From: Escherichia coli
GTDB lineage: Bacteria; Pseudomonadota; Gammaproteobacteria; Enterobacterales; Enterobacteriaceae
Reading direction: 5' to 3' (one strand)
NCBI RefSeq assembly: GCF_009931435.1
Contig: NZ_CP043415.1
Length of the DNA: 64,000 nt
Shown in pieces: positions 46,236-46,760 of this stretch (position 1 is the first letter of the stretch; the number at the start of each line of letters is the position of its first letter). The notes under the pieces were generated by a model. That model was not told the origin of the DNA, ran no database searches, and saw nothing but the letters and a program-made list of their open reading frames with translations. The position numbers were made by a program, and so were the translations under genes.

Positions 46236-46760
46236 ACCCGTTGAGTTTCGGGAGCCGCGGTTTTGACGTTTCGCGGGAACCTGCTGCTGTATTCCCTGTG
46301 GTATGAACTTCACCCGTTTGAGAACCTTCGCCGCAAGGGGCATCACTGCCACGGCCTGACGCACCTGTCCTGGGCAGAACGCAAAATTTTTTACCGGGTT
46401 TTGGGTAAAAAATTTTGTGGGCTGTTCATTTACCCTGGACAGTCAGTGCGGCAGGTTGTGGCTGTATGAGCCCCCGGCGACAGGGACTCATACGGGTGTG
46501 TGGCATCCGGCAGGCAATGAGCAGGGACCCGCCGCAATGACGGAGAGCGCGTGCGCGAAACGGCGTTGCGCCTCACATCCCGGCGGCCTTTTGCCGGGAT
46601 GCCAGGAGCACAGGCCACGGCGCGACAAGGGTGGCGCGACCGTTCCGGTCGCTGCAAGCCCGGGGTTTTGCGGCGTCAGGGATGGAAGCCCGCCAGGGCG
46701 GAGACAGCTCCGCTGGCTCCGTTCACGACAGCCCGCCCCGCAAGCGGGACGCCCGGGAAA
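46236..46760 (+). repeat. Leading-region structured repeat copy 3 (diverged)
   Basis: Shares GTTGAGTTTCGGGAGCCGCGGTTTTGACGTTT start and the hairpin at 46379-46420 with compensatory substitutions. Confidence 0.5.

Follow-up and report, generated by a model that had tools for sequence, protein, structure and literature searches.

When a conjugative plasmid reaches a new host, Frpo-type promoters drive the genes that it expresses first, among them anti-SOS, anti-restriction and further anti-defence genes. Which parts of their fold are needed is relevant to plasmid establishment and to efforts to block it. The dependence of the promoter on its secondary structure was reportedly published in 2004. 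Folded single-stranded DNA that is recognised by RNA polymerase, with SSB involved, also occurs in the sso of rolling-circle plasmids and in the hairpin promoters of phage N4; these are unrelated to Frpo in sequence and form much shorter hairpins, N4 uses a different polymerase and sso serves in priming only. Frpo was shown in vitro to fold and to recruit RNA polymerase (Masai & Arai 1997, according to the summaries given in PMC9849209 and PMC7690428). Promoter and primer activity restricted to the single-stranded form has been shown for Frpo1 and Frpo2 of F and for ssi1–3 of pESBL (PMC9849209, PMC12672017), the start sites of class-1 promoters have been confirmed by 5′ RACE (PMC12672017), and deletion of Frpo abolishes expression, with no de-repression (PMC9849209). 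Frpo can also prime synthesis of the complementary strand (bioRxiv 10.64898/2026.01.09.698686), and homologues are present in 6,006 conjugative elements (PMC11541004). The same kind of long hairpin is located upstream of the leading operons of ColIb-P9/IncI1 plasmids (ssi1–3; Bates 1999; Nasim 2004; class 1 of PMC12672017). Class-2 and class-3 promoters (ssp2/'Frpo3') are likewise long T-strand hairpins upstream of leading genes, but they have no sequence homology to class 1 and no A/T tip hairpin, and a second activity, as a roadblock to replication, is reported for ssp2 (PMC12672017, bioRxiv 10.64898/2026.01.09.698686, 10.1101/2025.04.03.647016).

Here we analysed a 64,000-nt stretch of Escherichia coli DNA (the window), in which three copies of a repeat family each fold on the + strand into a long imperfect hairpin. 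A sequence-only reading of this DNA had pointed to a 42-nt hairpin that recurs in the repeats. The three copies are very probably class-1 single-stranded DNA promoters (Frpo/ssi/ssp1), with the 42-nt hairpin as the apical cap, or tip, of a 328-nt imperfect hairpin. The earlier observation is correct in itself, and the tip hairpin is an ordinary part of an element that was already known. The additions that we make to this element are modest and comprise a quantitative covariation test of the tip, selection on the fold of the transferred strand, and the distinction between the outer stem of the tip and its core with a kept G·G mismatch; in the papers examined that mention Frpo, the words covariation and compensatory were not found applied to it.

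Plasmid context of the three repeats

Judged by its sequence, the window belongs to an IncF plasmid and is 99% identical to E. coli plasmids such as NZ_CP065971. An exact match to the F-type oriT nick-site motif (GTGGGGTGT and GGTGCTTT on the two sides of the nick, together GTGGGGTGTGGTGCTTT) is located at 33361–33377 on the + strand. From established knowledge of the F oriT, we take this to be the F nick site. The nick region is adjoined by FinP and the traJ leader (5′ UTR), identified with Rfam at 32448–32556. As the nick motif is on the + strand, the + strand is the transferred strand, its entry proceeds 5′ to 3′ toward higher coordinates, and the leading region lies above 33.4 kb. Copies 1, 2 and 3 sit 2.2, 9.5 and 12.9 kb into the leading region, respectively. 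The leading genes (the ygeA homologue, hok/sok, psiA, psiB, ssb and a methyltransferase operon) are all on the − strand, so the + strand serves as their template. As first downstream gene, copy 1 has the ygeA homologue (35207–35494, − strand; WP_000107542, which F also encodes) and copy 2 has the plasmid ssb (42324–42902, − strand; NCBIfam PRK13732, 375 bits). Downstream of copy 3 is an operon that encodes a 76-aa ORF, a DUF3560 protein and a SAM-dependent methyltransferase (43748–46002, − strand).

The arrangement is that of F, in which Frpo1 (ssiD) and Frpo2, also termed ssp1a and ssp1b, have the same position in the leading region, the same orientation, the same downstream genes (ygeA and ssb) and a hairpin of ∼328 nt. 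However, F carries two copies and the window plasmid three. The third copy is placed to drive the DUF3560/methyltransferase operon, as in many IncFII plasmids. The leading region of the window also contains a hairpin of class 2 (ssp2/'Frpo3' type) at 47842–48205 on the + strand (−86 kcal/mol, z = −4.7), upstream of an antirestriction ORF (47414–47839, − strand). A regular expression for class-2 promoters matched nothing in the window, whereas nhmmer with published class-2 sequences detected this hairpin with 191 bits against a published candidate. A weak further match was obtained at 54206–54340.

Several other features were noted in the window. An Rfam match to the AS-pc01 antisense RNA (RF02875, 98.9 bits) is located at 45997–46096 on the + strand, in the interval that separates the base of copy 3 from the start of its first downstream ORF. 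An IS21-family element (38916–40717, + strand; IstA of 340 aa and IstB of 260 aa) is inserted in a ParB-like leading gene between psiB and ssb, and this insertion is absent from the closest plasmid records. The segment 51711–53508 on the − strand contains a group II intron, with an Rfam domain match at 51711–51787, and an adjacent 574-aa ORF on the same strand.

Architecture of the long hairpins

Copy 1 (35535–35862, + strand) is a hairpin of 328 nt with 123 pairs and a folding energy of −105.1 kcal/mol. Copy 2 (42905–43232, + strand), which is 98.5% identical to copy 1, occupies the position of Frpo2 upstream of ssb, and copy 3 (46240–46565, + strand) is a hairpin of 326 nt with 118 pairs and −93.9 kcal/mol. 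When folded together with their flanks, copies 1 and 3 reached −132.8 kcal/mol (z = −13.3) and −121 kcal/mol (z = −9.4), respectively. The nhmmer scores with a model that included the published Frpo/ssi sequences were 274–278 bits, and more than 5000 plasmid records match the element. Identity to F Frpo1 is 97.3% for copies 1 and 2; for copy 3, identity to F Frpo2 is 92.6%, and the tip regions of these two are the same. By sequence comparison, copies 1 and 2 can thus be assigned to the Frpo1 type and copy 3 to the Frpo2 type, and the ssb-proximal copy is of Frpo1 type in the window but of Frpo2 type in F. The long stem carries compensatory changes at 17 of the 81 consensus pairs among 16 F-type relatives. 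No Rfam family overlaps any of the three copies. The identity with Frpo and the fold are established by these data, and promoter activity is assigned from the literature.

A small second hairpin (ACATCCCGGCGG-N4-TTGCCGGGATG) is conserved 3′ of each long hairpin (35872–35898, 43242–43268 and 46575–46601, + strand). RefSeq annotates 'hypothetical protein' ORFs wholly within Frpo hairpins at 35519–35725 and 42889–43095 (− strand), which are probably spurious calls.

Between the tip and the main stem, a 13-nt bulge on the 3′ side (GATGTGCATTTCA; 35717–35729 in copy 1, + strand) is unpaired in the fold and is conserved in the F, ColIb-P9, pSLT and GC-tip types (the last are described below). At the top of the main stem, on the 3′ arm, is the putative −35-like hexamer TGGACT (35734–35739, + strand). 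In the form TGGAC[AT], it is the sole −35-like hexamer that is conserved throughout the family (35734–35739, 43104–43109 and 46436–46441). Consensus scans for sigma70 −35 and −10 elements gave no good match, and a weight-matrix scan of both arms gave no consistently strong location. The best family-wide candidate was TGGAC[AT]-N17-[TC]T[GA][TC]NT on the 3′ arm. Two 5′-arm candidates, TTGAGA-N17-CATCAC and TTGACG-N17-TTTTGT, were set aside as they are not conserved in ColIb-P9-type copies, and so was a −10 in the 3′-side bulge with a −35 inside the tip, for which the GC-tip relatives have no room. In the class-2 hairpin, the 3′ arm bears the near-consensus TTGCAT-N15-TAAGAT (48069–48095), which is directed away from the tip; by analogy, the class-1 promoter probably has this direction as well.

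For the element as a whole, we follow the published mechanism, in which the folded transferred strand mimics duplex promoter DNA. Host sigma70 RNA polymerase transcribes the leading genes from the + strand as template, toward lower coordinates; the genes so driven here would be those of the DUF3560/methyltransferase and ssb-psiB operons together with ygeA. The transcript can also prime the complementary strand, and conversion to double-stranded DNA erases the fold and switches the promoter off.

Matched changes in the tip hairpin

The positions of the 5′ arm of the tip are numbered 1–17, the partner on the 3′ arm being 18 minus the position. Folding as single-stranded DNA bears out the perfect 17-bp stem that had been described for copies 1 and 2 at 35675–35716 and 43045–43086 (+ strand), two segments that are identical. 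In copy 1, the arms (35675–35691 and 35700–35716) enclose an 8-nt loop (35692–35699); the folding energy of this tip is −19.6 kcal/mol (z = −6.5), and none of 200 shuffled sequences was as stable. The tip of F Frpo1 contains a 1-nt deletion and has an irregular centre and an energy of −12.4 kcal/mol. The tip of copy 3 (46379–46420, + strand; arms 46379–46395 and 46404–46420) forms 16 pairs, one of them G·T, with an energy of −13.0 kcal/mol (z = −5.3), again with no shuffle out of 200 as stable.

Relative to copy 1, copy 3 shows the changes that the sequence-only reading had listed: G:C to T:A at pair 9, in the centre of the stem, G:C to A:T at pair 15, the third pair counted from the loop, and G:C to G·T at pair 3, near the base. 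The reading did not mention that the outermost pair is broken. Pair 1 is C:G in copies 1 and 2 and an unpaired A/G in copy 3, the stem of which is therefore 16 bp long. Copies 1 and 2 share 98.5% identity over 328 nt and hence count as a single comparison with copy 3 within the window, not as two. With three random substitutions assumed on each arm, the probability of at least two complementary coincidences between partners was calculated by hand as ∼0.007; a chance origin of the matched changes within the window is unlikely, and the basis of this estimate is two events only.

Covariation of the tip in a wider sample

Published Frpo/ssi sequences were taken from Supplementary file 4 of PMC11541004. 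The sample further comprised the leading regions of 13 diverse plasmids (from Klebsiella, Salmonella, Serratia, Enterobacter, Citrobacter and Cronobacter, an IncK plasmid and F), one Cedecea contig, and 120 metagenome stretches retrieved with a pattern that fixed the A/T tracts only and left every variable position of the tip free. A PsiB-based search of species-representative genomes returned 6 loci, several of which were E. coli plasmid contamination in unrelated assemblies, and a pattern scan of IMG/VR returned one locus. E. coli-type psiB was present at 99–100% identity in the contigs L003, L004, L007 and L008 (from assemblies labelled Streptomyces morookaense, Oscillibacter, Chryseobacterium and Collinsella), which probably reflects contamination or mis-binning. 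The profile search yielded 217 copies, 178 of them full length, with 51 distinct tip segments. The covariation set consisted of 25 distinct arm pairs, in which the register was anchored on the boundaries of the A-run and T-run only, not on pairing, and the loops were replaced by a fixed linker.

The sequence-only reading had proposed that the repeat family be tested for covariation in a wider alignment, and in this set both pairing and covariation exceeded all 500 shuffles and the slid controls. Standard pairs filled 88.7% of the cells (75.2% in shuffles) and the covariation score was 0.307 (0.115 in shuffles), values that no shuffle reached (0/500 for each); these counts are of sequences and not of independent events, and because the copies are related and recombining, the result supports the structure without being a calibrated probability. 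When the partner was slid by 1–3 columns, at most 66% of the cells were paired and the score was at most 0.098. Double changes were found at 8 of the 17 tip pairs, and the outer stem displayed 23 further standard pair types, compared with 18.8 in shuffles. At pair 3, a stepwise path leads from G:C (copy-1 type) through G·T (copy-3 type) to A:T (a K. quasipneumoniae copy).

Covariation among the 25 variants is confined to the outer stem, i.e. to pairs 1–4 and 14–17. The seven core pairs (AAA/TTT flanking the centre) show no variation in any of the 25, despite flanks that have diverged to about 60–70% identity. The invariant A:T and T:A pairs of the core indicate a constraint on sequence, in contrast to the earlier statement that structure is kept while sequence drifts. 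A similar qualification applies to the proposal that the hairpin itself is functional: its pairing is maintained by matched changes, but it is not an element of its own, being the tip of the 328-nt Frpo/ssi hairpin. The tip is therefore a selected structural cap, yet a perfect stem is not strictly required.

The transferred strand as the folding strand

In all 51 representatives of the element, the transferred (+) strand was more stable than its complement, by a mean of 16.5 kcal/mol, and G·T pairs were more numerous on the transferred strand (8.0) than on the complement (3.4). Where pairing is half-compensated, the compensation is on the DNA strand that enters the recipient, and the RNA-sense strand lacks it. 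This is consistent with a structure of single-stranded DNA and indicates that selection acts on the fold of the transferred strand.

This asymmetry leads us to reject two readings in which the hairpin acts in another form. In the first, which we regard as very improbable, it works in RNA, as part of the 5′ leader of the leading-gene transcripts or of an antisense RNA. Transcription that began on the 3′ arm and continued around the tip would include the hairpin in the RNA, and the tip of copy 1 is equally stable on either strand (−19.6 and −19.5 kcal/mol). However, the complement, which is the RNA sense, is the less stable strand in 51/51 elements, and the complement of the copy 3 tip loses three pairs (−11.5 versus −13.0 kcal/mol) because G·T becomes C/A. 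The absence of a U-tract after the hairpin and of an Rfam family at these positions also argues against an RNA function. The second reading, to which we give next to no weight, takes the hairpin as a cruciform site or as the operator of a dimeric regulator, which would act as an inverted repeat in double-stranded DNA. The 17-bp inverted repeat and its short spacer have the form expected of such a site, but the repeat is nested in a 328-nt inverted repeat with strand-biased imperfections, its spacer ranges from 3 to 26 nt among the variants, its outer arms covary and do not have a fixed sequence, and the loss of expression upon Frpo deletion (PMC9849209) is the opposite of de-repression.

Central mismatch, GC tips and exchange between copies

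Pair 9, the central pair of the tip, which had been counted as compensatory, does change from G:C to T:A between the copies of the window, but it is a G·G mismatch in 12 of the 25 distinct variants, which come from distant lineages, and F Frpo1, the copy that was studied experimentally, has an irregular centre. G·G occurs at this position in ColIb-P9 Frpo1, a pSLT-like plasmid, Klebsiella, Enterobacter, S. liquefaciens, Cedecea and candidates from Salmonella, and ColIb-P9 Frpo2 and Frpo3 have T·T. Among metagenome copies of the copy-1 type, the centre is G·G in 40 of 50, G:C, i.e. perfect as in the window, in 9, and C:G in one. The mismatch is flanked by invariant A/T tracts (e.g. L025:3574-3975, L002:9544-9946 and ColIb-P9 Frpo1). 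Conversion of the G·G centre to G:C took place at least twice (in the copy-1 type and between the Cronobacter and Enterobacter variants) and conversion to C:G once (L078).

These conversions are exactly the products that templated correction predicts, and templated mutation of quasipalindromes is established in E. coli. It is therefore conceivable, though doubtful as the main explanation, that the matched changes are largely mutational and arose by template switching between the arms (quasipalindrome correction), together with recombination that moves tip modules. The perfect and mismatched forms share both loop variants, in line with this explanation. A K. pneumoniae plasmid copy (L001:14505-14924) is a mosaic that joins copy-1-like flanks with a copy-3-type tip, evidence of recombination between copies, and crossovers between Frpo repeats have been documented (PMC3817090). 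Correction should, however, erase mismatches, yet G·G and the T·T of ColIb-P9 persist in many lineages. The G·T wobbles lie consistently on the transferred strand, which points to selection on the fold of that strand, and the excess of standard pair types in the outer stem over shuffles is likewise at odds with a purely mutational origin. Some of the apparent compensation, the perfect stem in copies 1 and 2 included, may have a mutational origin, but the persistent mismatches and the strand-biased wobbles indicate that selection continues to shape the tip. From the sequences compared, recombination moves tips between copies, and the ssb-proximal copy of the window has been replaced by the Frpo1 type.

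In some relatives, the entire A/T hairpin is replaced. Elements of Enterobacter and Citrobacter and an insect-gut element carry CGCGG-TTTA-CCGCG in its place, with the bulge and the CCCTGGAC stem kept. These GC-tip relatives persist upstream of ssb and are the sole type in the examined region of one Citrobacter plasmid. The 6-bp GC hairpin CGCGGTTTACCGCG was observed in IncF plasmids of Enterobacter and Citrobacter at L013:10040-10405, L014:4048-4402 and L014:10011-10370.

Folding order and possible roles of the tip

Because the transferred strand enters 5′ to 3′, the tip would form before all other native helices. When successively longer prefixes of the strand were folded, the tip was complete (17/17 pairs) once its 3′ arm had entered, and the remaining stem zipped stepwise outward. 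The 5′ arm alone formed 34 non-native pairs (−16.6 kcal/mol), which have to give way to the native stem. Disruption of the tip in silico cost 14 kcal/mol in copy 1 and 8 kcal/mol in copy 3 and left 97 of 123 and 102 of 118 native pairs, respectively, in the minimum-energy fold. Since most native pairs survive its loss, the tip is thermodynamically dispensable, and any role would be kinetic or one of recognition.

We infer, with roughly even chances of being right, that the tip nucleates the fold: as the first native helix, it would keep the two arms in register while the remaining stem zips up in competition with SSB and with non-native pairing of the 5′ arm. Such a role would select for pairing of the outer stem and would thus produce matched changes. 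Against it, a stem rich in A/T would make an unusual clamp, and the 6-bp GC hairpin takes its place in some relatives. Moreover, nucleation alone gives no account of the invariant A/T core and the conserved G·G.

These two features and the position of the tip are compatible with a second reading, in which the tip would be a sequence-specific recognition module, an A-tract/T-tract duplex directly upstream of the promoter core that serves either as an UP-like element for the C-terminal domains of RNA polymerase alpha or as a site for a DNA-bending or minor-groove protein. The outer stem would then only need to be paired, while the sequence of the A/T core would be read. We consider this reading possible but not probable, in its general form as in the division of labour between outer stem and core. 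In its favour, the seven core pairs do not vary despite the divergence of the flanks, and G·G is kept in distant lineages. ColIb-P9 shares with F-type copies the tip module CGCAAAA-N-TTTTT...AAAAA-N-TTTTG, the bulge and the CCCTGGAC motif; its outer stems gave no BLAST alignment, and the similarity (∼75–78%) is limited to the tip-proximal part (query positions 96–206). The only conserved −35-like hexamer lies just below the tip on the 3′ arm, the arm on which the class-2 hairpin of the window carries TTGCAT-N15-TAAGAT. An A+T-rich UP element is annotated in Frpo in PMC11541004, and the composition and core invariance of the A/T duplex of the tip fit such an element. The sigma70 UP elements (Ross et al. 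1993, as cited in PMC11541004), A/T-rich duplexes at −40 to −60 that stimulate transcription when bound by the alpha C-terminal domain, likewise place an A-tract/T-tract upstream of a −35-like hexamer, but the A/T duplex of the tip is a hairpin, and an asymmetric internal loop separates it from the promoter stem. The recognition reading is weakened by this 13-nt bulge between the tip and the hexamer, by the GC-tip relatives, which persist upstream of ssb with no A/T duplex, and by the fact that the −35 assignment of TGGAC[AT] is itself putative.

A more specific version, drawn from the sequence comparisons and in our view rather unlikely, is that the tip is a discrete, exchangeable module, i.e. 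an invariant A/T duplex with a kept G·G, hinged to the promoter stem by the 13-nt bulge, that the alpha C-terminal domains of RNA polymerase or another host factor would read to boost early transcription. If this were true, the perfect-stem and GC-tip variants would be natural strength variants.

In an IncFII plasmid of Klebsiella, an ArdB-like gene is preceded by a hairpin of ∼200 nt (L011:12400-12620) that matches the Frpo profile in the tip-proximal part of the profile only. Judging from this partial match, it may represent a further class of single-stranded DNA promoter.
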